From an uncultured virus (IMG/VR IMGVR_UViG_3300029288_000157) (lineage: Duplodnaviria; Heunggongvirae; Uroviricota; Caudoviricetes), in the IMG/VR virus record IMGVR_UViG_3300029288_000157: DNA of 64,000 nt. One strand, given 5' to 3'. The notes beneath the pieces are model-generated. The model saw nothing but the letters and a program-made list of their open reading frames with translations. It was not told where the DNA came from and ran no database searches. Below are positions 1,590 through 51,683 of the stretch, in pieces. The first letter of the stretch is position 1; every line of letters starts with the position of its first letter. Both the position numbers and the translations under genes were made by a program.

Positions 1590-1644
1590 TCACGTAGAAA
1601 AATCGCCACAGAATCACGCAATTAGTAAATTAACATGCCAAAAA

Positions 1645-1757
1645 CGACGCCTCTGAATAAATTGAAAGAGAGGAGTAAACCAAGGTTTCCCCTTCTAACC
1701 CCTTCCTATTTATCCCTGTGCACATACCCATTAGTATTACCAACATATAAACTTTAT
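1645..1757 (+). promoter_or_regulatory. Composite dispersed element, copy 1 (degenerate left box, hairpin, GTGCACAT, TATA)
   Basis: GTGCAC at 1718, TATAAA at 1746; shares CATACCCATTAGTA...TATAAACTTTATG with the copy at 13.9 kb. Confidence 0.8.
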
Positions 1758-1836
1758 GATCACACATCAAACCAGAACAAATAAATACAATCACGAACAT
1801 ACAAAGTATCTACTAAAATTACAAGGAGCACAAACC

Positions 1837-5384: not shown

Positions 5385-5771
5385 ATGTCCAACAAGACGA
5401 TTAAAACCACAAAAATGAGAACCATGCCGTCACTAAAACAAATAAACAAACGTCTCAACAAAACCGAACATGCCGTATTGACCTACCAGGAAGACCTATT
5501 AAACCCATGCGCCGCGTGCCACTCCACCAACATTAAGATCCTAACCACTCTTAATTGCCTCCAAGATGTCAGCGCAATCCAGTCCAACGACTACGTATTA
5601 TGCAAATGTCAGGACTGCGGCACCTCATCCGCCAAGATCTACGCCGACCAACCACAGCAATCATTCGCCACGCTGCTCTATCGCGCAATCGAAGCCTGGA
5701 ACAACAGTAACCACACACCACCAAAGAAATTCGACAAAGGCCCGGTTCCAAAGTCATTCAAAATGAGATAA
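5385..5771 (+). CDS. Lar (restriction alleviation)-like Zn-finger protein
   Basis: LNPCAAC...CQDCG...AIEAWN pattern. Confidence 0.55.
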   Translation: MSNKTIKTTKMRTMPSLKQINKRLNKTEHAVLTYQEDLLNPCAACHSTNIKILTTLNCLQDVSAIQSNDYVLCKCQDCGTSSAKIYADQPQQSFATLLYRAIEAWNNSNHTPPKKFDKGPVPKSFKMR

Positions 5772-5822
5772 CCAATCAGCAGAAAAGAACGCGCCAATCT
5801 CTGCCCGCAATGTGCTTAAAAT

Positions 5823-5926
5823 CGGCGTCAACAAAATGAAAAGGAGGGGCAACAAAGTTTCCCCTTCCATCCCCTTCATTTCGCCTTGGTGCACATACAA
5901 GTGCGTCTTGCCAACATATAAACCTT
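5823..5926 (+). promoter_or_regulatory. Composite dispersed element, copy 2
   Basis: CGGCGTCAACAAA (5823), hairpin, GTGCAC (5889), TATAAA (5917). Confidence 0.85.
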
Positions 5927-5958
5927 ACGGAGAACACTACAACCAAAGGAGAACCACC

Positions 5959-6339: not shown

Positions 6340-6672
6340 TGGTAAAATATTGTGATTATTATCCTAAATCATCATGTCCATATAATGAACCAATTCCATA
6401 TGAACTTGGAAAGAAGATAGAAAGGTATGATTTGAAATATAATAATTGTGTACATATGTATAATAAACGCGGTAAACGCAATGTGTATTCAAGATGTAAT
6501 TTAGGAGGAAGACTATGGTAATAGGAGCCGTATCAAACCAAATCATCCAGAACACCAACCAAATAGGCCAAACAGATCCCTATCTCGCCTCCCTGCTCGG
6601 CATCGGAATAATCATAATAGGTATAGCCTTCTTCCTAGCAATCCTATTAGACAAACTACGAAGTGACAAATC

Positions 6673-7317
6673 ATGACCAAAGAATTTGAAAAATTAATTG
6701 ATTGTAATCACTATCATCCTGGAGGATTTGTAGGATTTTGTACCACATTCAACAGATCCTCATTAATATGTGATTATAATACCATTCAACAGCGAATGAA
6801 ATGTATGTATAATCATAACAAACTAAAACACGCCATCATTGCCCCACCAAAAGAAGGAACGACTAAAATGACACCACACATCCCAAACCCCACTACAAGT
6901 AAGCGCCTGCCTCTTGTATTCAATCCTTTACTGAAGGACGACATGAACAGCCCACAGACCACCACCCCACAGCAGAGCACCAATTCCCACCTCGCAAAGA
7001 TCCACGCAAAGAAGATCCTCGTCCGAGGCGAACCACGTTTCGAAATCACAGGCTTCGAGAACATCATTGATTATGAGGATTTACCAAGAGAATATGTTGC
7101 TGCCAAACCACACTTTTACATGGATGAACTCACCCTCAAAATCCGTGGAATACGTTTAGTTCAGAACTGTTCAAAACACTCTCAAATGTCAAAAGAATCC
7201 TTTGAAGAAATGATTCAGGTAATGAAAGAATGTGGAACTCGGCTCACTAAAATCAACGCCCAGATCAAGGAGCGAGCCAAAAAGTTCGACGGGTCAGAGA
7301 TAACCATCACCATCTAA
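6673..7317 (+). CDS. Hypothetical protein
   Basis: 214 aa ORF; an internal RBS plus ATG near 6868 suggests it may be two fused genes. Confidence 0.55.
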   Translation: MTKEFEKLIDCNHYHPGGFVGFCTTFNRSSLICDYNTIQQRMKCMYNHNKLKHAIIAPPKEGTTKMTPHIPNPTTSKRLPLVFNPLLKDDMNSPQTTTPQQSTNSHLAKIHAKKILVRGEPRFEITGFENIIDYEDLPREYVAAKPHFYMDELTLKIRGIRLVQNCSKHSQMSKESFEEMIQVMKECGTRLTKINAQIKERAKKFDGSEITITI

Positions 7318-8888: not shown

Positions 8889-9860
8889 ATGCCAGTAACA
8901 ACAACACCACCAACTCCCAACAATTTCAACCTCACTCGTCTCTCCGAAATGATCCTACCCGAATCCATATCCAACCAAGTCCAACTAATTATCCAATCCT
9001 CCAGACGAACCCAACGCCTTCCAGGGCATATCATGTTAGACGGCATAGCAGGCGGGGGCAAGACCACGCTAGCCAACATCATAGGCAACGAGTTAGGCAT
9101 CGAAATGATCCAATGCGGTATCAGCACCGATTACACGCAACTTCTAGTCAAACTCTTCAACGAGTACAGACCCAAGAAGAACGTCATCCCCCGCCGCATA
9201 TACTTCATCGACGAAGCCCACGCACTCCCCAAAGCGGTCTATGAAATGCTCCTCACCGTCCTCGAAAACAACACCATAGCCCTCTCAAAAAACGGCGTCA
9301 ACCGCAACTTCGATCTCCCACCCTCCACTTGGATAATCGCAACAACCAATCCTGAACAAATCGGCACCCCCTTCAAGAACCGATTCCGTCATCACATAAC
9401 CTTTTATCCCTACGACCAACCAAACATGGAGCAAATCGCTACCCGCAACCTCAAGAAGTTCAACCTGACCCTTGACCAACCCTCAATCTCGATGCTCGCT
9501 AAAATCAGCCGCCAAACTCCCCGAACCCTCAACGGCATAATCCTAAACCTCATCGACTACACGAGCCTCATCAACACCACTGTCATCACGACCACTATTT
9601 TCAACGATTTCATGCGTTACATAGGAATCGATCAATACGGCCTATCAGAACGTGACAGACTGGTGATCCGTGCCCTAGGCGAAGGACTCAACCTCAACGC
9701 TCTGCCACTCCGCACCCTCGCAACCAACACAGGCATCGACGAACAAACTCTCAAGGAAACAGTTGAACCCTACCTCGTCCGCACTGGTGTCATTCTCATC
9801 ACAACCCGAGGCCGCACCCTCACCCAGTACGGAAGCGAACTTTACAAAGAGTTATCATAG
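8889..9860 (+). CDS. ruvB: RuvB-like Holliday junction branch-migration AAA+ ATPase
   Basis: GIAGGGKTTLA Walker A, FIDEAH Walker B, LPPSTWIIATT, NRF Arg finger, TPR sensor 2, and RuvB C-terminal GL...VEPYL...TTRGR domain. Confidence 0.9.
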   Translation: MPVTTTPPTPNNFNLTRLSEMILPESISNQVQLIIQSSRRTQRLPGHIMLDGIAGGGKTTLANIIGNELGIEMIQCGISTDYTQLLVKLFNEYRPKKNVIPRRIYFIDEAHALPKAVYEMLLTVLENNTIALSKNGVNRNFDLPPSTWIIATTNPEQIGTPFKNRFRHHITFYPYDQPNMEQIATRNLKKFNLTLDQPSISMLAKISRQTPRTLNGIILNLIDYTSLINTTVITTTIFNDFMRYIGIDQYGLSERDRLVIRALGEGLNLNALPLRTLATNTGIDEQTLKETVEPYLVRTGVILITTRGRTLTQYGSELYKELS

Positions 9861-13853: not shown

Positions 13854-13875
13854 AAACAAGTGCATGCCAACGCGA

Positions 13876-13971
13876 CGGTGTCAACAAATAAAAGAAAGGA
13901 AAGAAGATTCCCTTCTCTTACTTTACTGTGGTGTGCACATACCCATTAGTAACTAACACTATATAAACTTT
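13876..13971 (+). promoter_or_regulatory. Composite dispersed element, copy 3
   Basis: CGGTGTCAACAAA (13876), hairpin, GTGCAC (13933), TATAAA (13962), ATG at 13985. Confidence 0.85.
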
Positions 13972-14459
13972 ATGGAGAAAAATTATGCCATTAGCATCTA
14001 TATGCCTAACCTGTGTATTCTATTTAGAAGAATTAGAACGATGTTTCCTTAATAGAACACCAGACGAATGGATTAGCATACCATGCACATGCGATTACCA
14101 CGTTTCCATGGAAGAAGCCTACGAATGGAAAACAAAGGAACTGGAAGAAACTATGGAAGAGAATTCTGCTTATCTACCGAACTTCATAGTAACGAGGATT
14201 ACGCTATAATGACCCCTACCCAACGACACCCAACCCTCTCCCCATCAGACAAGTTCCACATAACCCTAACCGCCACGTGCCCACATTGCCAGAAGCCCTG
14301 GACTTTCACCCTCGACGAATTAGAACGCATGACCCTTTATAACAACTTCGCAATCTGCACTTGCAATCAAACCCGACTACACTGGCGTCACGACGGGGAT
14401 CTCGCCTTCGACATCATCGACAGCATCACTGACAAAACCATCTTGGAGGCAATTAAGAA

Positions 14460-22607: not shown

Positions 22608-22780
22608 CCCACCACCACGCCCGACTCCTGCTGTATCAACATGCACTTGTACAGCACCTGCAGGACACCGGACCAAGATCTGCAACTCCTGCGACCATTA
22701 CGAAATCGAAACCCAAACCTGTGAACGACACCCCCAATCCTTGGATATGGCAAACATAATCAAGTTCAAATGTGGAGAGT

Positions 22781-22818
22781 TCAGGGGATGTTTAAACACT
22801 CCCCTTGAAACCCCTAGT
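22781..22818 (+). repeat. Dispersed hairpin element
   Basis: TCAGGGGATG-TTTAAA-CACTCCCCTTGA, then AACCCCTAGT and a purine tract. Confidence 0.8.
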
Positions 22819-23662
22819 AGAGAAAAGAGGTAAGATAACTATGAAAGAGAAAGAAGAATTAACTGAAGAACAAGTTGCCAAATGGTTACAAGATCATAAG
22901 AAAATATTTTTCCAACTCATAGAAGATCCTATGTATTATGGAGTGTGCTATATGATCCAAGATCCATCAGAATATATTGAATATAAAGGTGACATTCCAT
23001 TTGAGCAAAAATTTAAAATTGGACCGGGTAAATATTGGGATGCTTATTATAATTGTGGTGTATGGTATACTCGTATAGAACCAACTCCTTATCCGTACAC
23101 TATGAAAAACCCCTATGATAAGTATTATACAGTTTACTTTTCCCGGAGAAACCCGCAATTAATTGAACTTGAAAAAGAAAATGAGAAATTTAAGGAAGAA
23201 ATGAAACAGAATTTACACACTCATTGGTGGAAATAATTATGAAAGAAATACCAAAACCCAAAGACTATTACTCGTGTATAGAATATTATCATCCGTTTTA
23301 TGACATACTTTACAATATAAAATGTAAAGTTAAACTGAAATATGGGTGCTCAAAAAATTCCTACACCATAGGAAAACTACATCTTAACTTTAATACAGAA
23401 AGTATTAAGATTTATTATGGAAAATCAAAAGATATGGAAATAGTTTCCTGCGATCCGTATGGTGATAGTTGGACATCAGGAATAGAATTAGACGAAAGGG
23501 CCGTAATATACAACATTCTTTTAGACGAGTTGCAATTTCTAAAATGTAATGAAAAAAGAAATCTGTTTTCAACTCGAAGAAAGAACAAAAGGAACAGAGA
23601 ATACTTAATGTGCAGTCTTAAAAAGTATCTTTCTGAACAATAATTCACATCGGAGAATAAAA

Positions 23663-23968
23663 ATGACAACAACACTACATTTGTGCAACCACTGCGCACA
23701 CAACCGGCTTGGCGTCTGCTCTGAAACAGGAGCCTCGCCGATCATAACCGAAGACGCTCTTGAATACCTGACCCTCTCATGCCCCGACTTCATCCAACGC
23801 ACTTTCCCATACTGCCCCCACTGCGGCACACCATTCACCTTGGCTAATGAAGTCGTCGATCCAGATGGCGAGGACAGTTACTTGGAAGAGAACCTGGGGT
23901 CTGATGGGCTAATTGGATTCACGTGCTTGAACTGCGGAGAGTTAGTATTAATAGAGGAAATGAAATGA
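23663..23968 (+). CDS. Cys-rich double Zn-ribbon protein (paralog of 14460..14780)
   Basis: GGAG RBS; same Cys pattern as 14460..14780. Confidence 0.7.
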   Translation: MTTTLHLCNHCAHNRLGVCSETGASPIITEDALEYLTLSCPDFIQRTFPYCPHCGTPFTLANEVVDPDGEDSYLEENLGSDGLIGFTCLNCGELVLIEEMK

Positions 23969-24152
23969 CGTACAGAAAATTATATGAAGATGGACTTGGT
24001 CACAACTGCCATGATTACTTGAAGCCGCCGTGTTTTAAGTCGAAGTGTGACAAGTGCCCGTTCAGGAACATGTGTGAGAATGCTGAAAAGAAGTTCTTTG
24101 ACGGAGTGCCTTACTGGAATGGAGAAAGTTGGGTCACGGTGTGAATGATCAC

Positions 24153-24258
24153 AAACTTTATATGTTGGTAAATCGAACTGGTATGTGCACCACAGCAGAA
24201 AGAAAGGGTTTGAAAAGGGAAACGCAAGTTGCCCTTTCCTTTCAATTTGTTGACACCG
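24153..24258 (-). promoter_or_regulatory. Composite dispersed element, copy 4 (inverted)
   Basis: Reverse complement reads CGGTGTCAACAAATTGAAAGG...hairpin...GTGCACATAC...CCAACATATAAAG. Confidence 0.85.
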
Positions 24259-24329
24259 TCTGCCGAACCTCATTTTGGCCGCCGATTTTAGAAACATTTA
24301 AATACCACCGCGTTCTAGTATATAAACAT

Positions 24330-24653
24330 ATGTGCCCTGTTTCGAAGTGGGAAATTTATGAATACCTGGAGGCCCAGAAGGATGCGATTGATGCCGAGGC
24401 TTCTAAACACAAGAGCAACAAAGTGCGCCAATTTATCAGGGATTTTAAGCAACAGCATGCCCTGAACGAGGCCGCCGTAGATACAATGTATGCCGAGTTT
24501 TGCGGCGCGCACCCGGAGGTTCCCATGAAGGACACTTACTTCCGCACCATTTGCGAAAAAACTTGGGAAACCCACGTCGTCACCCACCTCGTCGATGGCA
24601 AGAACGTGCGCACCGTCATGATCAACCTCAACAAGGAGAAGCGCAAGACTTAA
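24330..24653 (+). CDS. Hypothetical protein (possible DNA-binding)
   Basis: ATG 24330 downstream of TTTAAATAC; GC/CpG-richer codons than the flanks. Confidence 0.6.
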   Translation: MCPVSKWEIYEYLEAQKDAIDAEASKHKSNKVRQFIRDFKQQHALNEAAVDTMYAEFCGAHPEVPMKDTYFRTICEKTWETHVVTHLVDGKNVRTVMINLNKEKRKT

Positions 24654-24680
24654 ATACTTCTCAACCAAAACGTTTATATA

Positions 24681-25079
24681 ATGTTAGACGGCTATGATCA
24701 ATCTGCGTGCGGCTTCTGCGAGAATTTTACCTTTTCTGACGAGTTCCCCACCACGGGGCTGTGTTCACGGGAGGGCGCGCGGTATCTAATCGACCCGACG
24801 TGCTTTTGGTTCAAGGTATCAACGCGCAACAAGTTCCTCTATCACTGGTTCTTCGAGTGGGACGAAAACTTCATGTACCTCACCAGCGACTTCACCGACG
24901 TCTTCGGCATCTCACGCCACTTGTCGCGCCACTACCTGCTCAATATCCTGACCTACAACGAGGCCAAGGTCTTTCGGATAATCATTAGCAACACCGGTTA
25001 CTATATGAAGCGCACCAACTTCGACGTCGAGCAAATGAGCCGGTATGCAAAGTATAAATTAGTCAAGATGACGACGTGA
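24681..25079 (+). CDS. Hypothetical protein with N-terminal Cys motif and possible HTH
   Basis: TTAAATAC about 30 bp upstream of the ATG; CGFC...C...C. Confidence 0.6.
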   Translation: MLDGYDQSACGFCENFTFSDEFPTTGLCSREGARYLIDPTCFWFKVSTRNKFLYHWFFEWDENFMYLTSDFTDVFGISRHLSRHYLLNILTYNEAKVFRIIISNTGYYMKRTNFDVEQMSRYAKYKLVKMTT

Positions 25080-25208
25080 TAAAATGATCCCATACTTTTA
25101 CGAAATCAACTTGGTATTCAGTATGATTTACACAGTTATACTAATTGCCGGAGCAATATACTTGGTGCGAACAATGTTCAGAAAACGCGGCCCATAATGC
25201 GCAGGAAA

Positions 25209-25310
25209 CGGCGTCAACAAAAGAAAAAAGGAAAGTGCCAAGTTGCATACTTCCCTTTTCCCCTTTGTCTGGGGGCACATACATATTAGTTCCTAACACT
25301 ATTTAAACCT
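25209..25310 (+). promoter_or_regulatory. Composite dispersed element, copy 5
   Basis: CGGCGTCAACAAA (25209), hairpin, GGGCACAT (25273), TTTAAA (25302). Confidence 0.85.
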
Positions 25311-25702
25311 ATTGTTACAAGGAGCGTAGCGACTTTACAATACATTTATATCTGTAAAAAGCACACGTATAGATGGCAAAAGCCAACACGCCATACCAAA
25401 ATCTGCAATTAACCTTACGGTAAATACAGATTTTGAGGAAACCAGAAAGAAAGAGAATTTATGGAAGAAAAACAAGAAGTGTATAGACCACGAATACGGG
25501 TTGAAACATTACCAGATAGTGAACCTAATTATGCGTGTAGATTCAACACTCGCATATATTTGGATGATAACCCCATGCAAGTCAAGTATTTTAAAATGGA
25601 ATTGTCTAGTTCGAATGTTTATGAAGTTACTATGACCTTTATTCCAAAGGATGTTAATGTTAACTTGATGGATTCGAAAATAAATGTAAAAGAGTAAGTA
25701 AA

Positions 25703-26815
25703 ATGAAAGAGAAATTCGAAGAGATAGCAGAGCGCTACAAAATTACCCTAGAAGATGTGCAGAAGGAATACGCCAGTTTTGCGGCAAAGGTAAAGCCGAT
25801 TATGGAGCGGGACTATCCTGATGCCGTAGTTGAAAAGACCAATGAGTATTTCGTCCAGAATGTAGGCAAGATCTTTAAGCCTGATGCATACACTACTGCA
25901 CTGAAGCGCGAGAAAGATGGAACGGCTCTTGGAGTCATTGGCACTATCGTCAGTATTTCCCCGCCAAATGATCAGAACTCCTTTGAGAAAGATATTCGTC
26001 GTAAGTTTTATAATAAAAATCCAGATGCTGCGGTTACTGGTGGAATTGTTCGAGAAGGGGTTAATAAGAATGGTGAACGGTATCCAATTCCTACTCATAG
26101 CAAGTATAAGTTAAACAACAAGTTAGAACCAGTGCTTGATGATAATGGAGAAAAGATTCTTGATGATAAGTGCGGAGAAGACTTTACTAAATTCCTAATG
26201 ACGAAGATGCTATTCTTTGCCACCAAGGAATCATGTGGTGAAAAGGATGATGGGTGGAAACTACTTTATGCATCGTTGCCATACAACGAAGAAGCGAAGA
26301 CAGATAGAGTTCCAGGAATTATGCGCAAATCTAAATTAATTGGAACTATTACCAAGCAGCCTTATTTGAATGTTCTCCGGGATGCATATGCGGATCAGGG
26401 ATTTATCAAGCCAGACGAAGTAGATATTTGGACGCTTGCAAGTCAGTTTCTTCCAAAAGAGAAATCCTATATTGGGTTAGATCAGGTTGAAGATCTTGCA
26501 TCTTATAATATGTGGATTGCGCGCGTTAATATTGTCAATATATATGATAAACAGGAAGGAAAAGTAACCATTGAAATGAACAGTGACGACGTAGTGGGAG
26601 GAGTTAGAGCATCATCCCGTAACCCAAAGATTGTGGACTATGTAAGAGGTTATGTTGATGTTAACCGGGAAGCATATGTTATTGCAATGCGTAAGGGCTT
26701 TACTAACAAGGAAAATGAATACGTTCTGTACAACGAACTCATTGGGATTATACCATCCACCGAAGTTGACTCAACCGAAGACGAGATCATGAAGATGCTA
26801 TCAGGTGGCAACTGA
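25703..26815 (+). CDS. Putative single-stranded DNA-binding (OB-fold-like) protein
   Basis: 370 aa, beta-rich segments, acidic C-terminal tail, first large gene of the Sak4/nuclease/PolB module; function inferred from context. Confidence 0.4.
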   Translation: MKEKFEEIAERYKITLEDVQKEYASFAAKVKPIMERDYPDAVVEKTNEYFVQNVGKIFKPDAYTTALKREKDGTALGVIGTIVSISPPNDQNSFEKDIRRKFYNKNPDAAVTGGIVREGVNKNGERYPIPTHSKYKLNNKLEPVLDDNGEKILDDKCGEDFTKFLMTKMLFFATKESCGEKDDGWKLLYASLPYNEEAKTDRVPGIMRKSKLIGTITKQPYLNVLRDAYADQGFIKPDEVDIWTLASQFLPKEKSYIGLDQVEDLASYNMWIARVNIVNIYDKQEGKVTIEMNSDDVVGGVRASSRNPKIVDYVRGYVDVNREAYVIAMRKGFTNKENEYVLYNELIGIIPSTEVDSTEDEIMKMLSGGN

Positions 26816-32826: not shown

Positions 32827-32862
32827 TAAGGGGATGTTAACACTCCCCCTTAACCCCCTAGT
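32827..32862 (+). repeat. Dispersed hairpin element
   Basis: TAAGGGGATGT-TAAC-ACTCCCCCTTA, then ACCCCCTAGT and a purine tract, right after the polB stop. Confidence 0.8.
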
Positions 32863-33744
32863 CAGGAGAAGAAATGGTAAAGAGAAAGAAGGTAGAAGTT
32901 ATAGAAGAGATTATCGATCATTGGTGTAAGGATTGCAAACACGCTAACTTGGAAAAACATAAATGTGTAAAGTGCGATATTATATTGAACCAGAGATCAC
33001 ATTACAAATGTAGTTCGTACGAGAAGGAGGAAGAAAATGGGATTATTACGTAATTATTTCTATGGAAATGATGCAAATAAAACTGAAATAGCACCTAGTA
33101 GAAATATTCCAAAATATTCTGCAGAAGAATTATATTGTTTTGCTCAATTTGCATATTGTAAATCTTCTGCAAATGCTGATAATAGTAGATCTTTTAATGA
33201 TAATTTATTTCTGGTGTCATATGAGGATCACGGATCAGGATATTATTCTAGGTATGCAGTAGTGTATGACGCTTCTATTTCACCGAATTGGAAGGATTTT
33301 CCAGATGAGGCATTGTTTGTAGTTTATCGTGATAATGATGCTGAAAAAAAATATTCTGTGTATTTTTGTGATGAGTGTAATGATATGTGTAAGACAACTA
33401 TTATAAATGAATTAGTTAGGCTTGGTAGCATTGGGAAAGCAAAACGCGATTCAGAATTATTACAGATACAAATGATGGAACGCCAACGGGAATTACATAA
33501 TTCCAATAAAAGAAGGACTGCATGCGAATTGGTATGAGAAGGAGGAAATAATTTGACAGAAATAAACCTAAACGAAACAAAGCACCACTTGCACGACTAT
33601 TTCCAACATGGTATATTCCAACTCAAGGAGGCGCGGAATAACATACCCAACTACAACAGGAGCATTAACTACCAGTTGGTTAAGAGTGGGTTTTTAGAGA
33701 TTGCGCGGGTGAATAGATCACCAGCAAAGACAAAGACATACTAC

Positions 33745-40290: not shown

Positions 40291-41494
40291 GAACCAGAGA
40301 AGAAGTTGAAGTCCTTATTGAGCATTTTCGAAAACAACCAAGGAGGACTCTTGAAGATGCGTATTTTTCAAAGTATGCTTTACAATTACTGAATTGGTTT
40401 CTTGGTGATGCTGAAACAGATATGCGTGAAAGAATTCAATACGAACTGGCTAAAATGGAATGTTTAAAGAATATGAATAATTTATGTGAACTTGATGTAG
40501 AAAAAATTATGGAATATATGGGATTGAATTATGATAAGAACTTGTAAAGATTGTGGAACTCCTCTCCTGTACGAGTGTCTTTGGCCGGATGGGAGTGTTC
40601 GGTGTTCGAAGTGTCATAATAAGAAGTTGAAGAGTTTAGATAAAATTATTGAGAGGAGAAGATTGAATGATGTTAAAGTGTCCCAAATGTGGGTATAAAC
40701 TAGGCTGGATTTCAGAGTATGTCAAGGTAAAGATGGAGCACAAGTGTGAATGCCCTTGTTGTGGGAAGCGGGTGAAAGTGTGACTATGATTTACGTGGCG
40801 TATGCGAAGGAGTGCTGCGATGGGTTTGAAGTCGTGGTGACTCCGAAGCCGGATGAAGACGATGTGTATCACTATAGGATCGGAATGGTCAATGCACTGA
40901 ACAAGTATCAGAGGATTGATGTGGAAGAGAAGTTTAAGGTAAGGTATTTGAAGCAGTTGAAGAAGTTCCATGACGGAGGGTTCTTTGAGAGGTCTAATGG
41001 GAAGATGATCCTGTTGGATGATAAGGAGAACACGTTCTGGTTTGAGATGTTGGCGGGGTTTTTGGAGAAGAAGGGCTATCAGGTTAGGGTTATAAAAGAA
41101 GATCAAAAGAGGTTATAAAAATGGAAGGAATGGAAGCGTACTATAGAGGACAGGCTGCCAGAGCACGCGGAGATCCGGTCAAAGTATTTGATTGGGAAAA
41201 AGCAGCAATGATTATTACAACAGAACCAGAAATGGAGTATACTGCATCATTAATTGAGGATTATTCCTCGACTGCCGGAGAAATTTGGAACAGGGATGGT
41301 ATTGTAAATGAATATACTTATTTAGAATCCGTTTGGGCAACTCCGTCTTTAAATGATGATCCGTGCTGGAAATATAGTGACGAACTTAAATCCATAGGAA
41401 AAAATTGGAACTTTGAAACTAAATGGCCACCAGAGGCAATAAAAATTTTGGTTGATGCTGAAATTTTAGAAGAAGTTAATGGTGAGTATAAACG

Positions 41495-41588
41495 AAAGTT
41501 TTAAATGTTGGTAAATTGAACTTTTATGTGCACGAAGGCAAGGAGAGGAAAGGAAGGCCATCTTCCTTTTTTCAATTTGTTGACGCCG
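41495..41588 (-). promoter_or_regulatory. Composite dispersed element, copy 6 (inverted)
   Basis: Reverse complement reads CGGCGTCAACAAATTGAAAAAAGG...GTGCACATA...CCAACATTTAAAA. Confidence 0.85.
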
Positions 41589-42210
41589 ATTTTTGCCGCG
41601 TTTTTGAGGCCCGATTTGAGTGGCCCGGTTTTGGATAGTAATGTTTAAATGCCGCCGCGTTGTATATTTTATTTGAAAATGTGATTTAGATGAAAGATTT
41701 TGATTATGAAGACTTTATTGATAGGTGCGAATTTGGGTATGAGTTGCAAACGAGTGGTAAATATATTCCAATTGTTAAACTTGAAGTTGTTAAGGCATCG
41801 TTTTTTGGAAAATTAACTGTTCTAAAGTGGTATTCTCATAGAATGTTTGAAATGCATATATATAACGAACTGGGTATCGATACTAGTATGGTTTACATAC
41901 AGCATAACTTGGATTTTAGCAGCGTTGTCAATGACTGTTCAAAGTTTATTGTCATAACGATATATCCAGAGAATTACTGTATGTATCCACACCGGGACAA
42001 TTTTGTGTTACATGTTCTAGGGGAATCTCAAAAAATAGATTATGAATACATGTCAGTTGAACAATACAAAGATTTGGTAAAAAGTGATATAAGGAGTAGC
42101 ATTGAGTCTGAAAAGCGTCGAGAGTCAGAGCGATTGAAACAAAAACAAAAAGAGAAGGAAGCCTTGGATGAGTTTAACAAGCATCCATTTCACTTCATTA
42201 GGTGTGGTAA

Positions 42211-43102: not shown

Positions 43103-43390
43103 TTATGAAAGTTAGAGAGTTGGTCGAGGAACTGAAGAAGGTTCCAGAAGAGTATTTGAATAGAACTGTGATGGCGAGCATAGACGTTATTGAAGAGGAT
43201 GGTCGCATTACCAAATTGATAAATACTGGCATTAAGTGTGTAAACGTGGCCGATGAATACCAGGAAGACGAGCCGGAGGAACAGGAAGACGAGCCAGAGA
43301 AGCCGCCGAAGTATTTCAACGACGCCGATGTGTTCTTTGATAGATTTTTGAGACAGGTAGGATGAACGGGGCTTAAAATGCTGCTAAAAA

Positions 43391-43483
43391 CGGTGTCAAC
43401 AAATTGAAAAAGAGAAACGACTTCCCTTTTCCAACGTGTCTTTGGGTGCACATGATAGTTAGTATTACAAACATTTAAATCTT
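43391..43483 (+). promoter_or_regulatory. Composite dispersed element, copy 7
   Basis: CGGTGTCAACAAATTG (43391), hairpin, GTGCAC (43446), TTTAAA (43474). Confidence 0.85.
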
Positions 43484-45120
43484 TTGGATGATAACATAAT
43501 GGTGATAGAAAAATGACAATTGACCTTATATGGACATGTGTAATACTTTTCTGCGTAGAGAATTTAATTTATGCAATATGGTATTATTCAACCAGAGAAT
43601 CGAAGTATGAAAGCACAAGTGTGTGGTTCAAGAAAACAAAGGCACGATTTTATACTGTTGCTATTCTGGGATTAATACAACTTGGACTTTTATTTGTGAT
43701 AATTCTCGGCGTTATAAAATATATCTGGAACATAGTATGAACAAAACAATTTCTTTTCTTGGAGATCGAGTTACATACACTGGAATTAATCAAAATCGCG
43801 ATTGGACTGTTCCAGATGGAGTTTCTTCGATTACTTATTTAGTTGCAGAGTCTATGCCAATGGGCAGTGATTGTATGGAAAATGTATTGTTTAATGCGTT
43901 GGTAAACTTACCTTGGCCTACTCCTATAAGAATTTATACTGATGAAGAATTCAAGCAGTATGATTATCACAAACGAATGAAAACCTTATGGAGCAGTGCA
44001 TGAGTGAAAAACTAAAGCACAAAGTATTCGATAACGTAAAGATCACCTTCAAGAACTCTACAGAACCACTCGATCTTCCCCGTGGGTTCTATGACTTCTA
44101 TATTACTGACGGAGTAATCACAGTGATCTGTTTTGATTCCCTTGAAAAGAACGAGATAGTTGCAGCAAAAATTTACAACCCTAACGAAATAAAGTTAATT
44201 GAGGTCTATTAATGGCACTCTTTAAAAACTGCAAGGTAACTTTTAACGACGATCAATTCGAGCAATTGATAGGAAAGGCATTCTCCTACGTCATCCGTGA
44301 TGACTTCGTCATAGTAACGTGCTACGACGACTTTTCTTGCTTGGGATTCGTTGAATATGAAATAATCTACAGTGGTCGAGACATAAAAAGTATAGAAGTG
44401 AGCAACAAATGTTAATTTACTGTAAACAATGCGGTTATTCGCAGGAACTAGAATTTGACGAGATGGAATTGTATGCAGCATGGGCAGAAAACAAGAGACT
44501 CGCCTCTCCGTTTCCATGTCCCAGATGCAGTGAATTGCTAATGAACGAAGAAGACTGGGAGGTATCATGATGACTGCGGAATTTAGTAGTGGTAGTGGTG
44601 GTGCTGTTGATACTACTGGTAAATACTTTGGTTATGATGAGAATGCTTTGACATACATAAGTGCAAAAGATTTAGCAGAATATCAAAAACTAAAAGCACA
44701 GGTTCGGGTACTTACAGATGATCTCATGGCTATGTTTCCAGATGGAAATACATTTGCGATGATTGATGACCCATGTAAGTATGCATCTAATACGTTGTCT
44801 ACTTTAAACAAATCGTTGAAAGAAGTAATGTATGGAAAGTGTGGATGTAGTCATGCTACTAAAGTCGAAGAGAATGAAACTGAACTAGAAGAAGAGGAAA
44901 CAAAAATGGCATCGGAAATGAGCACAATTTTAATTGGTTGGAAATCTGGGAGTCCAACTATATACGAGGAATGCGAGAACATTGAGTGGACTGATGGTAA
45001 TGGGTATGACGAACTTCAGTTTACAATGAATGGTAAGGATAACATTATCAAGATAATGCACGATGCAGTAGAATTCATACGGATTGTCTGGTGAATCTCA
45101 TTGATCACCATCAATGATAC

Positions 45121-45155: not shown

Positions 45156-46163
45156 ATGGAATTGGTAAGTATATGCATCTCTACATGGAACCGTGTAGCA
45201 GATCTCAAACTCCTTTTTGAATCGATTCTAAAGCAGGACTATTTCAACCTCGAACTCTGCATAGTGGACAACGCTAGTCTTGACGGCACATTCAAGTTAG
45301 TTCAGGAATACAAGCAGATCTTCAATGGACGTGGCATTGAAGTCCATTACGAACTACTCCCTGCGCCGAATGACAATGCTATCCAGACGATCAACCAGGC
45401 ACTCCGCATGGGAACTGGCAAGTATCTCTTGATAGTTGATGACGACGCCTACTTATACAAGAGTGATGTTATTAGCAGGTTAGCATCTCACTTTTCAAAC
45501 CCATACGTTGGAATAGTTGGGGCAAACATAAGAGGTCAGAACGGACTTGCTCAACTTATGATTGCCAACATAGATGGAAATGTAATTCCAGAGGAGGATC
45601 TGTTCTCAATGGGTTCCTTCGAATACTACAACTTTCATGGAGCATGTGCTATGTTCAGGAAGGATGTGATGCAGCGACTCCACTTTTATGACGAAGGATT
45701 TATCATCTACATGAACGAACTTGATGTAGCACTTCGATGCATCTCGATTATGTATAAGGTGTTGATTGACATGGAAGCAGTTGTAATTCATAAAGGAACC
45801 GTGGATATGAATGCCTGCACAAAGAAGGCCATATTTGCGATTAGGAACTACAACAGATGCATCCGGCGCAATTTTAGTGGATTACTCAAGTGGAAATGTC
45901 TTACGTTACAGACTATCATGACCTTTGGATACTTTGCCGAACGCATTTTAATGTGGGACACCTATAAGAAACGGTGTATCTTTCCACTAATATATAGAAC
46001 TATTTTATATAACTTGGTAGATTTCACTAGGCGACAACCAAAAAACAGTGGCTACTTCAGTTGGATTGTTCAGTATTTAATTTACAACCGCATTAAAAAG
46101 TCATTCACCAGTCGTATTGGGTGGAGTCTCCATCATAAACAGGGAATCAGAGGGTTCAAATGA
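45156..46163 (+). CDS. Glycosyltransferase family 2
   Basis: VSICISTWN, IVDNASLDGT, IVDDD, FYDEGF...ELDV. Confidence 0.92.
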   Translation: MELVSICISTWNRVADLKLLFESILKQDYFNLELCIVDNASLDGTFKLVQEYKQIFNGRGIEVHYELLPAPNDNAIQTINQALRMGTGKYLLIVDDDAYLYKSDVISRLASHFSNPYVGIVGANIRGQNGLAQLMIANIDGNVIPEEDLFSMGSFEYYNFHGACAMFRKDVMQRLHFYDEGFIIYMNELDVALRCISIMYKVLIDMEAVVIHKGTVDMNACTKKAIFAIRNYNRCIRRNFSGLLKWKCLTLQTIMTFGYFAERILMWDTYKKRCIFPLIYRTILYNLVDFTRRQPKNSGYFSWIVQYLIYNRIKKSFTSRIGWSLHHKQGIRGFK

Positions 46164-47104
46164 AACCAAAAGTTATGGGATTAATGATTACATGTAACGA
46201 AGAGTGGATAATTGAGCAATCGATAACCATCCTTTTAAAATATGTTGATGAAGTTCTTGTATTGGATGCATCAACTGATAGAACCAGAGAAGCACTTATA
46301 ACATCTGATAGAGTAACTGTTTATTTTCAGGAAAATTATCCAGAACTTACGAATTATGGAGAATATCGACAGTTTCTGTTAGACCGTGGCAGAGAGCGGG
46401 GATGCGAGCATTTTGTGTGTATTGATGCTGATGAAATGTTTCCAAGGAATTTTTCTGTTGAGGTATTTAATACATTAGTAATGAACCTTCCTATTGGTTA
46501 CGCTTATCAATTTAATGTTGCAAATTTTTATAAAGATTCGTATCATTATACTATGCAAGGAAAAATAGGCTCAAAATTTATTGATGCTATTTTTCATGAT
46601 GATACCATATGTAGTTATTGTTACAGAAATGAAGTACATGAAGAACGCACTCCATGTAATAAATATATAAAAGTTGAATATCCATTATTACATTATGGTT
46701 GTCTGTCTACATTAAAAATGGATTTACGAAGATTATATTACATGTTATTGGAGTGCAAGTATAATATAAATAGTGCTAGAGGTATTAATTTTAATTATTA
46801 TATAAATTCTTGTATGAGCAAAAATTTTAAATCTAAATTAATGTTAGTTTCTGATGAGTTAATATACCCATTTATAAATTATGCGGAATTGACACAAGAT
46901 GCTGGCATTTCTTATATAAATAAAGTTTATACTATTTATATGAGTGATCCAGATAAATATAATATGCTAAATTTACATGGATCATTTTCGTTTTATAAAG
47001 TTACTAGGGATAGAATTATCGATCTTATAAGAACAAGAAGCATAAAGGTAATATTTAAATCGTTACGAGACTACTTAATATTAGACATATTGAAGAAATG
47101 GTGA
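46160..47104 (+). CDS. Glycosyltransferase, GT-A fold (GT2-like)
   Basis: NEE..I, VLDASTD.T, CIDADE, VHE, LLHYG. Confidence 0.85.
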   Translation: MKPKVMGLMITCNEEWIIEQSITILLKYVDEVLVLDASTDRTREALITSDRVTVYFQENYPELTNYGEYRQFLLDRGRERGCEHFVCIDADEMFPRNFSVEVFNTLVMNLPIGYAYQFNVANFYKDSYHYTMQGKIGSKFIDAIFHDDTICSYCYRNEVHEERTPCNKYIKVEYPLLHYGCLSTLKMDLRRLYYMLLECKYNINSARGINFNYYINSCMSKNFKSKLMLVSDELIYPFINYAELTQDAGISYINKVYTIYMSDPDKYNMLNLHGSFSFYKVTRDRIIDLIRTRSIKVIFKSLRDYLILDILKKW

Positions 47105-47112
47105 ATAAATAG

Positions 47113-48153
47113 ATGACAATTGGATTAATGGTTACGCGGAATGAGGAGCATTTTATTAAGTATGCACTGCCTCCGCTTCGAGTGCTTTGTGATAAGGTAA
47201 TTGTGCTGGATGCTTCTACTGATGGAACGAGGAAGTATTTGGAGCAGTTTAATGATGTGTATATTTACTGTGAGGAAATGTATGACCCTATGAATTGTCA
47301 GCAGCGACGGCAATTTCTCCTTGATAAAAAGAGGGAATTGTTTCCTGATGACAAATTTTGTATTACGATTGATGCCGATGAGATCATAAGCCAGGAGTTG
47401 ATTTCTGTATTTATTTTGATGAAGAACTATTTGCGTCAGTGCAACGGTTTTTCGGTGAATTGGTGGCATGTTATTGGTGATATACATCGTAGGTTAAATT
47501 TTGACACGTATCAAGGATTTGCTTTTTTTGATGATGATACAAATTACATGCGAGATGCAAATGTCCATGAAGATAAACTACCACATGGGTTTCCTGATAA
47601 GTTTACTGGGTTCTATCATTTGGATGCTGCATTAATGCATTTTGGTATGTGCAATGAAGGATTTCCACGAGTAAAAGAAGCATATTATTTATATTTGAAA
47701 TGTTTAGATGGGGACAATCCAAGTAATGTGAATGCTAATAATTTAATACATTATGATAGAAAAAATACTACTTCATTCCATGCACTTTATCCTCCTGAAG
47801 TAGACGAAAATATCATGAAAATTGATGACAGAGCACAAGATTATATGAAGAAGTTCCTTGATGTGGCACCGTTTGACTTTAAAACACTTTATCAGTTGGA
47901 TATTTGGAATGTCGAAGGTCTTCTTCGTGCTTGCCGATGTAAAGTCAAAGGGTTCAATATGCGAAAGGTCAGGCATAAAAGGTGGAAATACCCACCTGAA
48001 ATAATTGCTATTCAAGTAAGGTTATTCCAAATTTGTTTTTTGATTAAAACGTTGCAGTTTAAGTATCTTATAATACAAACAAAAAAATATTTTGTATGGA
48101 AATTATCACCATTATGGAAGTGGTATAAACATGACAAACAATTCAAAGATTAA
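47113..48153 (+). CDS. Glycosyltransferase, GT-A fold (GT2-like), paralog of 46160..47104
   Basis: RNEE, VLDASTDGT, TIDADE, VHE, LMHFG. Confidence 0.85.
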   Translation: MTIGLMVTRNEEHFIKYALPPLRVLCDKVIVLDASTDGTRKYLEQFNDVYIYCEEMYDPMNCQQRRQFLLDKKRELFPDDKFCITIDADEIISQELISVFILMKNYLRQCNGFSVNWWHVIGDIHRRLNFDTYQGFAFFDDDTNYMRDANVHEDKLPHGFPDKFTGFYHLDAALMHFGMCNEGFPRVKEAYYLYLKCLDGDNPSNVNANNLIHYDRKNTTSFHALYPPEVDENIMKIDDRAQDYMKKFLDVAPFDFKTLYQLDIWNVEGLLRACRCKVKGFNMRKVRHKRWKYPPEIIAIQVRLFQICFLIKTLQFKYLIIQTKKYFVWKLSPLWKWYKHDKQFKD

Positions 48154-49222
48154 AGTAGCAATTATTAGGCACAACGGCCTATTCATGGGAGGTACTGAAA
48201 AATTTCTCCAGATTATGGCCGCTGAAGTGAACAAGGATGAGTTTGAGGTGGACTATTATACCACTAATGAGATGCGATTTAAGGATAGAGAAAAATATCT
48301 ACGTGATAATAATGTTAATGTAATAAAGTTTAAAAAATATAAGTATGAATATTTATCATCAGAGTTGAAAAATAAACTTAATTATATGTGGTTTTGGAAA
48401 AAATTTAAAAAAAATTACTATGACGTGGTACAAGTAACAAATTTTTCATGGAATGAGCATCCATATAATTATTTTTATGGAGAAAATGTTTGTCAATTTG
48501 TAGTTTTTTCTCCATTTTGTGATTTTCCATGTGTAAAATTATCAATTCTTAATAGTGAATGGTTAAGAAATACGTGGATTGACACTGGTGGAAATTTGGA
48601 AAAGTCAGTTGTTATTCCAGTTCCTGTATGGATGCCGGAGCATAGTCTTGATTTAAGGGATGAACTTGGAATTTCTAAAAATACATTTGTATGTGGATTT
48701 CATCAACGAAATAATGATTATTTATGGTCTCCAATTCAATTAGCCGCATATAAGTTGATAGAATCTGATAATACATGTATGCTTGTTTTAAACAGTAGTA
48801 ATAAGTATAAGGAACAAGCACAATTTTTGCAAATAAAGAATGTTATATTTTTAGACTATATGAAGGATGAATATGAAATGACAAAGTTTTTCAATACTTT
48901 GGATCTTTATACCCATGGTAGACGTGATGGAGAAACTTATGGAACAGTGTTTGCTGAAGCAATGGTACATAGAATTCCATGTATTTCACATTGGTCTGGT
49001 ATTCAGGATGCCATGGAAGAGACGATTGGCAACGGTGGGTATGTAGTTGGTGGTAATCCAAAGGAATATGCTGAAATGATCCAGAAAGTTATGGATATGG
49101 ATAAGAATGAGTATGGTGCATTGTGTGGTGCTGCCAAGACCGAGGCATTGACCCGGTTTACGTATGATGTAGTTGTTCCAAAAATTGAGGATGCGTGGAG
49201 ACATGTCGCAGGAAGAAGTTAA
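48131..49222 (+). CDS. Glycosyltransferase family 4 (GT-B)
   Basis: GGTEK, LRDELGI, ETYGTVFAEAM...PCI. Confidence 0.9.
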   Translation: MTNNSKIKVAIIRHNGLFMGGTEKFLQIMAAEVNKDEFEVDYYTTNEMRFKDREKYLRDNNVNVIKFKKYKYEYLSSELKNKLNYMWFWKKFKKNYYDVVQVTNFSWNEHPYNYFYGENVCQFVVFSPFCDFPCVKLSILNSEWLRNTWIDTGGNLEKSVVIPVPVWMPEHSLDLRDELGISKNTFVCGFHQRNNDYLWSPIQLAAYKLIESDNTCMLVLNSSNKYKEQAQFLQIKNVIFLDYMKDEYEMTKFFNTLDLYTHGRRDGETYGTVFAEAMVHRIPCISHWSGIQDAMEETIGNGGYVVGGNPKEYAEMIQKVMDMDKNEYGALCGAAKTEALTRFTYDVVVPKIEDAWRHVAGRS

Positions 49223-49874
49223 AGATCCTTATTTAGATCAGATCGTGAAGGCTTATAATTTGAATTTGGAAAAGTTACATAGTGAGGCGATTGAACCCGC
49301 GCGTTATTTATCTTTGATGCATTGCGCTAAAGAAATTTATGATAAAAATATCAATGGAAGTGTATGCGAAGCGGGAGTATATAAAGGGTTATTTGCTCAA
49401 TACATTAATGGGTTCTTTAATGATCGGACTTTACATTTATATGATACGTTTTGTGGATTTATAGAAGGAGAAGTGAAATACGATTTTCACTTCAATTATT
49501 TATCAGGAAAACATGATATGCCCTCATTTTCCCGTGATAATAATTTAGAATTAGTAAAGGCATTGATGCCTCATCTTGATAAGTGTGTATTTCATATAGG
49601 CAGAATACCAGAAACATTGGATTATTCTTCTAATGAAAAGTTTTGTTTCGTGTCCATAGATTGTGATCTTCACCTGCCGACATTTAATTGCTTGGAATAT
49701 TTTTATCCACGAGTTAATGTAGGTGGTTACATTTTTATTCATGATTATAACCATGGTGCAGGTGATTTTTATGGAATACGAGAGGCTATTAAACGGTATC
49801 AAAATATGTATAAAATTGAGTTAAAGTATGTTCCTCTTTCGGACTTTAGTGGCACCGTGGTGATTGCAAGATGA
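49203..49874 (+). CDS. TylF/MycF-family sugar O-methyltransferase
   Basis: EAGVYKG, LYDTF.GF, G.IPETL, IDCDL, GGYIFIHDY. Confidence 0.9.
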   Translation: MSQEEVKDPYLDQIVKAYNLNLEKLHSEAIEPARYLSLMHCAKEIYDKNINGSVCEAGVYKGLFAQYINGFFNDRTLHLYDTFCGFIEGEVKYDFHFNYLSGKHDMPSFSRDNNLELVKALMPHLDKCVFHIGRIPETLDYSSNEKFCFVSIDCDLHLPTFNCLEYFYPRVNVGGYIFIHDYNHGAGDFYGIREAIKRYQNMYKIELKYVPLSDFSGTVVIAR

Positions 49875-50914
49875 ATCCACCATTGGTTTCGGTAGTGATC
49901 TCGACGTGGAACAGAGTGGAACTTCTGCAGGGTGCAATAGAGTCTGTTGTAAAACAGGACTATCCTAATATTGAGTTGATCGTGGTGGATAATGCCAGTG
50001 ACGATGGAACACTTGAGTTCATGCAGTCGATGCTCGATGAACAGGATGGTGTGCGATATGGGATTGAAGGGCACTTTCCAAAGTATGTGTTAAGTAACAT
50101 TGTGAATGTCGATTATACAAGACTTCCTTATCCAGATCCGAGTGCTATGAAAACCCTGAATATGGGATTTCGTAGGGCCAATGGGAAGTATATTCTGGTT
50201 CTTGACGACGACGCAGTAATGAACGAGGTTAATTGCTTATCTTTTCTCGTTAATGATATGGAGTTGCGCCCAAATTTAGGATTGATTTGTCCAAACGTTA
50301 TTAGCATTGATGGGTCTACTCAGTTGTTGGAATATAGAGATTACCCAGAGTTACATCTTGGTTATGGTAGGATGTATACATATTGTGGTGCATGTGCGCT
50401 AATGCGTTCTGATGTTTTTGAGGAACTTGGGTTTTATGACGAGTCCTTTGTGTTGTATTGGAACGAGGCTGATGTAAATATTAAGATGTTGTATGGTGGT
50501 TGGGACGTATTATATACAAATTTGGTGTCTGCTACACATTTAGTGTCACAAAAGCAGAGGTTTATGAAAAAGAGTTTGTATTATTTTTTAAGAAATGGAA
50601 ATATGGTTATTAATAGGAGCATGTCGTTTAGAAATAGAATTAAATTAATAATGATAAGAAATATTGTGTTGACATATATTATATTAAATAAATTTGAATT
50701 TGATATTGTATACATAGTGAAAGTATTAAAGGTTGTGATTACATCAAGCGTGAATATTTTTATAATGTTTAATAGGTATAAAGCATGTAATAAAGATATA
50801 TTTAAGGAAGTAAATGATATGTTTCTAAAGGTACAAATGTTAGAAAACAAAGGATTTTCATGGAATTACATGAAACCAAAAATAAAGGAGTTAATTTATA
50901 ATGGATTTAGATAA
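49871..50914 (+). CDS. Glycosyltransferase family 2, paralog of 45156..46163
   Basis: VSVVISTWNR, VVDNASDDGT, VLDDD, FYDESF..YWNEAD. Confidence 0.92.
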   Translation: MNPPLVSVVISTWNRVELLQGAIESVVKQDYPNIELIVVDNASDDGTLEFMQSMLDEQDGVRYGIEGHFPKYVLSNIVNVDYTRLPYPDPSAMKTLNMGFRRANGKYILVLDDDAVMNEVNCLSFLVNDMELRPNLGLICPNVISIDGSTQLLEYRDYPELHLGYGRMYTYCGACALMRSDVFEELGFYDESFVLYWNEADVNIKMLYGGWDVLYTNLVSATHLVSQKQRFMKKSLYYFLRNGNMVINRSMSFRNRIKLIMIRNIVLTYIILNKFEFDIVYIVKVLKVVITSSVNIFIMFNRYKACNKDIFKEVNDMFLKVQMLENKGFSWNYMKPKIKELIYNGFR

Positions 50915-51452
50915 ACCGATAGATGGGTGGTTGACTCCGATGGAGGGCATTGTGTTGACTCACTTAGCAGAGCAGTGTCGGAGTGGTTGTATTGTGAACA
51001 TTGGATGCGCGTTTGGTCGATCAGTTCAATATCTTTGTGAACGCGCAACTGTTCCAGTTTATGCGATTGACTTGTACATTACTCCTGAATTAACAGAGTT
51101 TCGAAACAGAGTTACAAGGAAACCCATTCTGATTGAGGGAGACTCGTTGGATCAGGAAGTTATCGATATGGTTGTGGAGCCGATTGAGTTGCTCTTTATC
51201 GATGGGGATCACACTGTTGAAAATGCTTCCTTGGACATCCTGAACTGGGTGCCGAAGGTGCAGAGTGGTGGTTATGTGGTTATTCATGATGTGTTCTGGG
51301 ACCAGATTAATGAACCGTGTAGATGTCCTGAAGTCATGCTTGCGGTTAAGAGGAGCATTGATTACGAGGACTTTGTAAAGTTCGAAAGGTTGGAGTTCAT
51401 GGATACATTGTGGTCAAGAGTGGATACCTGTATGATCTTTCAGAAGAGGTGA
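50901..51452 (+). CDS. Class I SAM-dependent methyltransferase (Methyltransf_24-like)
   Basis: GWLT..E, IG...GRS, LLFIDGDH, GGYVVIHD. Confidence 0.88.
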   Translation: MDLDKPIDGWLTPMEGIVLTHLAEQCRSGCIVNIGCAFGRSVQYLCERATVPVYAIDLYITPELTEFRNRVTRKPILIEGDSLDQEVIDMVVEPIELLFIDGDHTVENASLDILNWVPKVQSGGYVVIHDVFWDQINEPCRCPEVMLAVKRSIDYEDFVKFERLEFMDTLWSRVDTCMIFQKR

Positions 51453-51683
51453 TAAAGATGTATAAATATTATGTTATAGTTGTTGAGGATATTACTAACA
51501 ATATATTATTGAAATATAAATGTGATGAATTACCTGATAAATTTTTCAAGTTGTTCATATGTGATAAATTATATGAAATAAATGACATTATACTGAATTA
51601 CAGCGATTTTGATTATTATGGATTTATGGTTGTAAATATCAGAGTTTCTGAAGTAAATATTAAAAGCCAAGGGAAGTGTTTAA

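Follow-up and report, generated by a model that had tools for sequence, protein, structure and literature searches.

The window analysed here comprises 64,000 nucleotides from an uncultured tailed virus (IMG/VR record IMGVR_UViG_3300029288_000157) and is part of a 98,393-bp contig from a landfill metagenome run. Its plus strand carries nearly all open reading frames (ORFs) up to 63.5 kb, the first clear block of minus-strand genes beginning at 63,483. The encoded proteins include a PolB with an intein, a ribonucleotide reductase, an ERCC4 nuclease, an RNase H, a dCTP deaminase and glycosyltransferases. At 24.1–25.3 kb, two copies of a repeated element of about 120 nt, copy 4 (inverted) and copy 5 (forward), face outward around two small genes, denoted A and B (Table 1), an arrangement described in a first-pass annotation of this DNA and confirmed here. 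To the right of copy 5 stands a 370-residue ORF, followed by genes for a Sak4-like ATPase, a PD-(D/E)XK nuclease, a DHH protein and PolB. The replication module that the first-pass annotation had placed downstream of the pair is recovered as far as the ATPase, the nuclease and the polymerase are concerned; its SSB label is not, the 370-residue ORF matching no Pfam or PHROG family. The leader between copy 5 and ORF 25461 (25338–25470) is about 77% kept in the related contig L127; another TATA-like word lies within it, as does a short ORF that begins MAKANT.

Elsewhere in the window, the early region includes a RuvB-like AAA+ gene with a winged-helix C terminus (8889–9860), also present in the distant relative G002 described below, and a perfect 20-nt inverted repeat (5549–5568 and 14439–14458, with 8.9 kb between). 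After copy 7, positions 45156–53187 hold five glycosyltransferase, two methyltransferase and two radical SAM genes, partly common to G002, which form a probable DNA or virion modification cluster. An Rfam search of the window gave one chance-level match, away from the pair, and no tRNA was found in it.

Table 1. Element copies and features of the bracketed cassette (window coordinates).
Feature	Position	Strand	Description
Element copy 1	1638–1760	+	Unpaired; precedes early operon
Element copy 2	5809–5931	+	Unpaired; precedes early operon
Element copy 3	13869–13976	+	Unpaired
Element copy 4, inverted	24148–24275	−	AACAAA anchor; purine/pyrimidine hairpin about 24191–24254; GTGCAC box 24190–24185; TATA-like hexamer 24162–24157, left-facing
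Second promoter-like motif of gene A	24297–24329	+	TTTAAATAC, 13–15 nt, TATATA; start codon directly after
Gene A, 107 aa	24330–24653	+	Long helix and winged-helix domain
Second promoter-like motif of gene B	24650–24680	+	TTAAATAC ... TTTATATA; full motif in relatives
Gene B, 132 aa	24681–25079	+	Four-cysteine N terminus and helix-turn-helix/wing-like core
Possible 37-aa hydrophobic peptide ORF	25084–25197	+	
Element copy 5	25196–25315	+	Hairpin about 25215–25272; GGGCAC box 25273; TTTAAA 25302–25307, towards replication genes
Element copy 6, inverted	41491–41603	−	Left half of second outward pair; second promoter-like motif at 41644
Element copy 7	43376–43488	+	Right half of second outward pair

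The window contains seven copies of the element, which in its own orientation consists of a GC-rich flank, an AACAAA anchor, a purine tract, a loop, a pyrimidine tract, a GTGCAC box and a TATA-like hexamer. Copies left out of the model were found again by it with E values of 1.6e-14 to 2.7e-22, the best unrelated matches having E of at least 0.014, so the repeat family is not a product of chance. Five of the seven copies are oriented along the genes. The two inverted ones, copies 4 and 6, each adjoin the stop codon of the operon to their left (24144 and 41504), with a forward partner standing 0.9 kb to the right of copy 4 and 1.8 kb to the right of copy 6. The second of these pairs brackets genes for a hypothetical protein, a dCTP deaminase, a DUF4326 protein and another hypothetical protein. 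When the ten copies of the related element of G002 are counted with the window's seven, the distance from GTGCA to the TATA-like box is 28–29 nt in 16 of 17 copies, and the hairpin is stronger on the reverse than on the forward strand in all 17 (z of −2.9 to −6.1 versus shuffled sequences). Phasing of A/T and GC at 10–13 nt on the inner flank reached p<0.05 in 4 of 11 copies tested. A tight pattern of the element matched nothing in IMG/VR, a loose one matched 120 stretches, which yielded one weak model match (E 0.39) in the loci checked, and a pattern of the G002 type matched 63 stretches, with full-length matches in G002 alone; none of five more distant records contained the pattern. A second small repeat family, a G-run hairpin followed by CCCCTT..AACCCC, stands at gene ends (2881–2921, 22783–22823 and 32827–32867); it also occurs in L121, and its pyrimidine part is common to element copies 1, 2 and 4.

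A sigma-70 scan of 23.9–25.5 kb gave 3 weak matches, against 3.1 expected, none of which covers a TATA box of the elements; with such sites at chance level, archaeal TATA spacing appears the better reading of the element promoter. A second promoter-like motif (TTTAAATRC, 13–15 nt, TATAT) lies on the inner side of both inverted copies. It precedes genes A and B in the six related contigs L121–L125 and L127, and is found again at window positions 41644 and 59570.

The 920 nt between copies 4 and 5 have a GC content of 47% and a CpG observed/expected ratio of 1.28, versus 38% and 0.87/0.95 in the flanks, as the first-pass annotation had stated in general terms; 4.5% of equal-sized stretches are as GC-rich. 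Neither an array of iterons nor an AT-rich element for unwinding can be discerned between the two copies. The transcript of gene A is predicted from the sequence to be leaderless, and its product may bind DNA. The AlphaFold model of this product (pLDDT 78.5) has a best structural match with Z 8.2 and an r.m.s.d. of 3.2 over 77 aligned residues, a middling score that many winged helices share, and a Foldseek search with it gave no match at E<=0.001. Its features lie near those of Pox_D5 clusters in the Atlas (0.94, 164 shared features), and the Pfam Pox_D5 profile matches the gene A family weakly (E 0.051, in 1 of 15 members); alignment to the C terminus of P4 alpha with hhalign was negative (probability 0.1). 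Gene B is 81–88% identical in close relatives, and distant relatives keep its core alone. Its four cysteines may bind a metal. Weak profile matches to PaaX (E 0.001) and DUF977 were obtained in 1 of 6 members, a search of PDB sequences gave none, and the predicted fold is unreliable (pLDDT 35). The 37-residue hydrophobic ORF after gene B has no counterpart at the same place in L122, L124 or L127. A short hydrophobic ORF also closes the cassette of the corresponding pair in G002 (about 28 residues, at about 123200–123290, beside 37 residues in the window), which may be a coincidence.

Scans of IMG/VR with gene A, gene B and the 370-residue ORF gave no close relative, and a full gene A was found at 61–79% in five of six metagenome loci. 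Among the relatives compared here, L121–L125 are metagenome loci and L127 is from a genome collection, where it sits in a MAG labelled Syntrophaceae and is probably a mis-binned viral contig. All six have genes A and B on the plus strand with respect to the flanks. An inverted copy lies left of A in L121, L125, L127 and partly in L123, and a forward copy lies right of B in L122, L123, L124, L125 and L127. The TATA-like box is kept on the inverted copy in L125, L121 and L127. About 190 nt, among them the whole inverted copy, are missing from L124, where a TnpB element's end and the gene A promoter flank the gap; its 97.5% identical sister L125 has them. The inverted copy may thus be dispensable, unless the L124 variant is defective. 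The TnpB element itself, of IS605 type, occupies about 1050–2394 in L125, behind a TTTCAA word, and in L124 adjoins a second TTTCAA site. A remnant of it follows gene B in L121, L122 and L127, and in another lineage a short hairpin resembling its left end separates gene B from the forward copy.

The first-pass annotation had also suggested an invertible or excisable cassette. On this reading the two copies would act as recombination sites, for instance of a phase-variable switch. One contig of run X2 does link 24157 to 25338 on opposite strands (depth 9.46, with 41 letters on its short side), and the element of MAG G001 indicates that copies can be duplicated or converted. That element (L136, G001:C410, 58–187) stands against early-type genes and shares 43 identical letters, covering the TATA box and the downstream stretch, with the forward copy of L127, which points to recent copying or conversion between copies. 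The X2 joint is, however, accounted for without inversion by the non-inverted L127, whose right-hand copy is 75% identical to copy 4 and 66% to copy 5 and in which similarity restarts exactly at 25338. Six relative contigs, from two lineages, and the window all show the cassette in one orientation. Between copies 4 and 5 the similarity is about 71% and the longest common word has 10 nt, which is far from the near-identical crossover sites that inversion would need. No recombinase family was matched among 93 proteins of the window, which covers 64 of the contig's 98 kb, and no tyrosine or serine recombinase was found in the complete G002 (0 of 1, with controls at 14 and 12 of 14), although an enzyme of the host might act in its place. 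Flipping would moreover change little, because each cassette gene has its own promoter motif, and excision is not expected, because inverted repeats would invert the DNA between them. The suggestion is therefore regarded as very unlikely.

Cumulative G−C over the window has its minimum at 23,839 and is no more than 30 counts above it over 22,627–25,761, placing a skew switch near the pair, in agreement with the first-pass annotation. Asymmetry was also determined gene by gene as S = log(G/A) − log(C/T) at synonymous third positions, a quantity independent of GC level, in 99 hand-picked window genes; the ORF sets for these tests were called in the present analysis and some of the short ORFs may be false. 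S is negative in 45 of the 47 genes left of copy 4 and positive in 37 of the 44 between copy 5 and 58.7 kb, with the best step at 24.0 kb (22.75–24.0 kb). A step describes S better than a ramp over all 99 genes (log likelihood −38.9 vs −49.1), and a ramp describes it better than a step over the 93 genes below 58.7 kb (−27.7 vs −31.6). At four-fold sites, T versus A changes in a step, best placed at 23.0 kb, and a ramp describes G versus C better (AIC 2396 vs 2410 for the step), with the best added step a downward one at 40–42.5 kb; the change on the right side is gradual. Three forward copies have the most C-rich stretch, 0–14 kb (−2.75 and −1.50), behind them. There is no upward step at the second outward pair, copies 6 and 7 at 41.5–43.5 kb, across which the asymmetry runs 0.67/0.51/0.67. 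The plus-strand genes at 58.8–63.6 kb are negative (C-rich) again, and the promoter motif of the second type at 59,570 is near their start; this turn from about 58.8 kb may reflect a meeting point of forks or codon preference. A C- and A-rich left side and a G-rich right side have the direction given by two diverging forks. A sawtooth model in which each copy primes one strand was discarded, as the asymmetry does not drop between copy 5 and copy 7.

A scan with PolB gave 10 viral loci, and genes A and B were found in two of the five records searched, G002 (143.5 kb, complete, with a PolB 47% identical to that of the window) and G003 (66 kb). G002 carries its own ten-copy element, which aligns with the window element and has the same build; a model of it scores the window copies weakly (best E 0.005), and judged from these alignments the two elements are likely to share common descent. 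A close outward pair in G002 (122,186− and 123,330+) brackets two genes unrelated to A and B, with a similar second promoter motif. The change-point of S falls at 122.0–123.75 kb, inside this pair (47 plus-strand ORFs; log likelihood of a step 8.8 vs −5.0 for a ramp), and the genes around it are negative in 23 of 24 cases on the left and positive in 16 of 21 on the right. Genes A and B of G002 have no flanking element and no switch, and lie 27 kb from the switch pair; in G003 they likewise have no element, and the plus strand is C-rich throughout A–B, with no switch. As the switch in G002 stands at an outward pair around different genes, it follows the pair and not the genes. In the window the RuvB-like orthologue lies to the left of the pair and has a value of −2.54; in G002 it lies to the right of the pair and has +0.62, so that position, and not gene identity, sets the sign of the asymmetry.

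A second upward step in G002, at 93.5–97.5 kb, also lies inside an outward pair (93,797− and 98,891+), and this pair encloses a homologue of window ORF 41690. The downward jump at 102–103.5 kb is probably the genome end, and the remaining two outward pairs (15/22 kb and 30/47 kb) show a weak, broad step. Genes A and B were also considered as an origin marker in their own right, a candidate rejected on account of their position away from any switch in G002 and G003. In both records (G002 6554–6964; G003 45.3–46.1 kb) the two genes are adjacent and upstream of replication genes, and B is without the cysteine domain; a leftward ORF and an AT-rich stretch precede gene A in G002.

The bracketed genes of both viruses are the two highest in synonymous GC: of 99 genes in the window, B is first and A second, and their counterparts by position take the first two places among 167 in G002 (a set from which two overlapping minus-strand ORFs were removed and to which one plus-strand ORF was added by hand). 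The probability of the top two ranks by chance is 7e-5 in G002. In the bracketed genes G/(G+A) and C/(C+T) are both high (0.71/0.73 and 0.52/0.60), and at synonymous sites the left flanks lose G and the right flanks lose C. In G002, where no pair encloses them, genes A and B have an unremarkable synonymous GC (0.37 and 0.45). The bracketed DNA may therefore form a pocket, flanked by two points of outward initiation, where neither strand stays single-stranded for long; strong expression could contribute.

The copy 4/5 pair at 24.1–25.3 kb is read, with moderate confidence, as the main replication origin for the left part of a linear, two-armed genome, built from two back-to-back terminator–promoter repeats. 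This reading rests on the repeats, on their fixed spacing and orientation, and on an asymmetry tied to the pair in two distant viruses; two independent genomes form the evidence base for the link between pair and switch. The skew minimum and the G002 switch within a close outward pair around other genes speak for the origin proposed in the first-pass annotation. Against it speak the gradual change on the right side, the second pair of the window with its lack of an upward step, the loss of the inverted copy in L124, the weak step at two further G002 pairs, the return to C-richness at 58.8 kb, and a cassette in which no unwinding element or iterons are evident. The promoter, terminator and activator-box functions, the initiation of forks and its trigger belong to a proposed model. 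At a lone element, the hairpin on the strand against the promoter would stop transcription arriving from the front, and a viral activator at the GTGCA box would direct a start from the TATA box. Two copies placed back to back about 1 kb apart would shield the cassette between them, fire outward and open or prime two forks, the left one crossing the early genes and the right one the replication genes. As in phage origins that depend on promoters, divergent transcription from both copies would be the likeliest trigger, acting by way of RNA primers or negative supercoiling. The genes between the copies would be passengers with their own promoters, here encoding two putative DNA-binding proteins, insulated from read-through on both sides. 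Not every outward pair is an active origin, as copies 6 and 7 of the window, with no step, illustrate.

The same features could serve transcription alone, the pair insulating a two-regulator cassette while copy 5 drives the replication operon and antisense RNA from copy 4 silences the early genes; the skew flip would then stem from transcription-linked damage, or an origin would merely be nearby. The inverted copies adjoin the stops of upstream operons not only in the window but also in G002 (PolB end, 15,001), and S is negative for the PolB gene of G002, which has an inverted copy on its right. A strong step is absent from most outward pairs. The repeats of the halovirus HF2 are proven promoters, and long counter-transcripts occur in HF2, according to the available text of PMC8707807. 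The TATA hexamer of copy 4 does aim into the end of ORF 23965–24144, in line with the antisense direction noted in the first-pass annotation, and because a TATA-like box with unchanged spacing is found on the inverted copy of relatives, antisense promoter activity, which the same annotation had proposed, is plausible from sequence comparison as a by-product or second role of the inverted copy. On its own it does not explain the skew pattern. The stretch at 0–14 kb is the most C-rich, yet three forward copies there should favour sense and block antisense RNA, and G-richness (+0.67) marks the genes to the left of inverted copy 6; transcription alone thus predicts the wrong sign twice. Nor does it give a reason why the G002 switch follows the pair when the regulators lie 27 kb off. 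Transcription as the whole explanation is accordingly regarded as unlikely, although a transcription switch and an origin are compatible and do not exclude one another.

Genomes of the T5, T7 and SPO1 type have terminal repeats that are re-copied during packaging, and the pair might mark the inner boundary of such a long terminal repeat, the early region of 19–24 kb being re-copied by one-directional strand displacement. G002 has a sharply bounded C-rich block of 19 kb (103.5–122.5 kb) with small genes of early type, and in IMG/VR the record falls in the class with direct terminal repeats. The end overlap in G002 is, however, 123 nt, and in the window virus a repeat of this kind would take about a quarter of the 98-kb contig. 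It would predict neither the G-rich stretch on the right, nor the step at 93.5–97.5 kb, nor a cassette that is GC-rich on both strands, and is considered improbable.

The origin reading at 24.1–25.3 kb can be extended, although the extension is tentative and on balance doubtful: the dispersed repeat would act as a gene switch when alone and as half an origin when two copies stand back to back, whatever their cargo, making origins combinatorial in methanogen viruses. If so, shuffling of the repeat would make, move or lose origins, and the bracketed DNA would be a pocket of low mutation. The host is probably a member of the Methanomicrobiales resembling Methanospirillum, and the virus an archaeal tailed virus, judging by the gene content of its relatives: L124 and L125 encode an archaellin whose best match among solved structures is 5TFY (E 3.8e-50), a Methanospirillum hungatei entry. 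Among the matches listed from deposited phages, relatives of the PolB are distant (25–30%) and many are haloviruses, which at about 26–27% also figure among the closest archaeal-virus matches listed; the genome itself may be linear and two-armed, like that of HF2. The archaellin gene lies directly left of the inverted copy (L125 443–934; L124 about 100–590) and differs in its variable part between these sister contigs. An archaellin encoded by the virus could hide the host receptor or change it. Replication start in large archaeal tailed viruses is poorly known, and the present analysis names a 1.2-kb candidate together with a second natural example with different cargo. It would also add a promoter family with an activator box and two conserved, putatively DNA-binding proteins to the gene control of methanogen viruses, and the portable origin and promoter set might find use in Methanomicrobiales genetics. 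A literature search largely confined to non-subscription journals found no origin role for such repeats in archaeal viruses.

Promoter-dependent phage origins, such as the primary origin of T7, ori(uvsY) and ori(34) of T4 and the lambda origin, rely on promoters, single or in tandem, together with iterons or an AT-rich region for unwinding. The locus described here resembles them in being tied to promoters, in lying in the left part of a linear genome and in initially acting in two directions, as far as the proposed origin is concerned, and differs in its divergent copies of a dispersed repeat, its GC-rich exchangeable cassette and its archaeal host enzyme. The C-terminal winged helix of P4 alpha has an origin-binding role. 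Gene A recalls it, and the poxvirus D5 winged helix, through its own winged helix and its Atlas features near Pox_D5; unlike them, it stands alone, has no P4 alpha profile match and lies away from the switch in G002 and G003. The oriV of IncQ plasmids (RSF1010) combines two sites, ssiA and ssiB, one initiation site per strand, in the available text of PMC6925257, and has in common with the copy 4/5 pair that two initiation sites lead to two-directional synthesis. It needs RepA, RepB, RepC and iterons, none of which is identified here, and the sites in the window are multi-copy and carry TATA boxes, in contrast to oriV as that text presents it.

The closest parallels are with repeats that carry promoters. 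The class I and II intergenic repeats of HF2 (Hafunaviridae) are conserved in place and orientation, and share with the window element, as interpreted here, the dispersed intergenic TATA repeats, two promoter classes, counter-transcripts and a two-armed archaeal tailed virus as their carrier (PMC8707807, available text). They are shorter (29–58 bp), and the same text describes for them neither a constant terminator-like hairpin nor a cassette enclosed by back-to-back pairs, and connects them with no replication origin, the element being set against them by description. PeSL and PmSL of T4-type phages are cassettes of a stem-loop and a promoter involved in gene shuffling (PMC2839356, PMC4122927), and halovirus HGTV-1 has a PeSL-like motif (PMC3950731), according to the portions of these papers available. 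Like the window element, they combine stem-loop and promoter in many copies beside variable genes, with copies that drive shuffling, and PmSL has an activator box before its −10 box, as GTGCA stands before TATA here. Their promoters are of the sigma-70 or Mot type in those accounts, as opposed to the archaeal TATA spacing of the element; the accounts describe excision circles between neighbouring PeSL copies and not outward pairs or origins, and the hairpin here favours the strand opposite the promoter. With its multi-copy motif and spacing, its upstream stem-loop, and a position and orientation that are kept (L124 excepted), the element would work like a PeSL or an HF2 repeat without being a T4 PeSL, since a sigma-70 promoter is not part of it. 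If the origin reading is true, repeated viral promoter cassettes and transcription-dependent origins are joined in one element.
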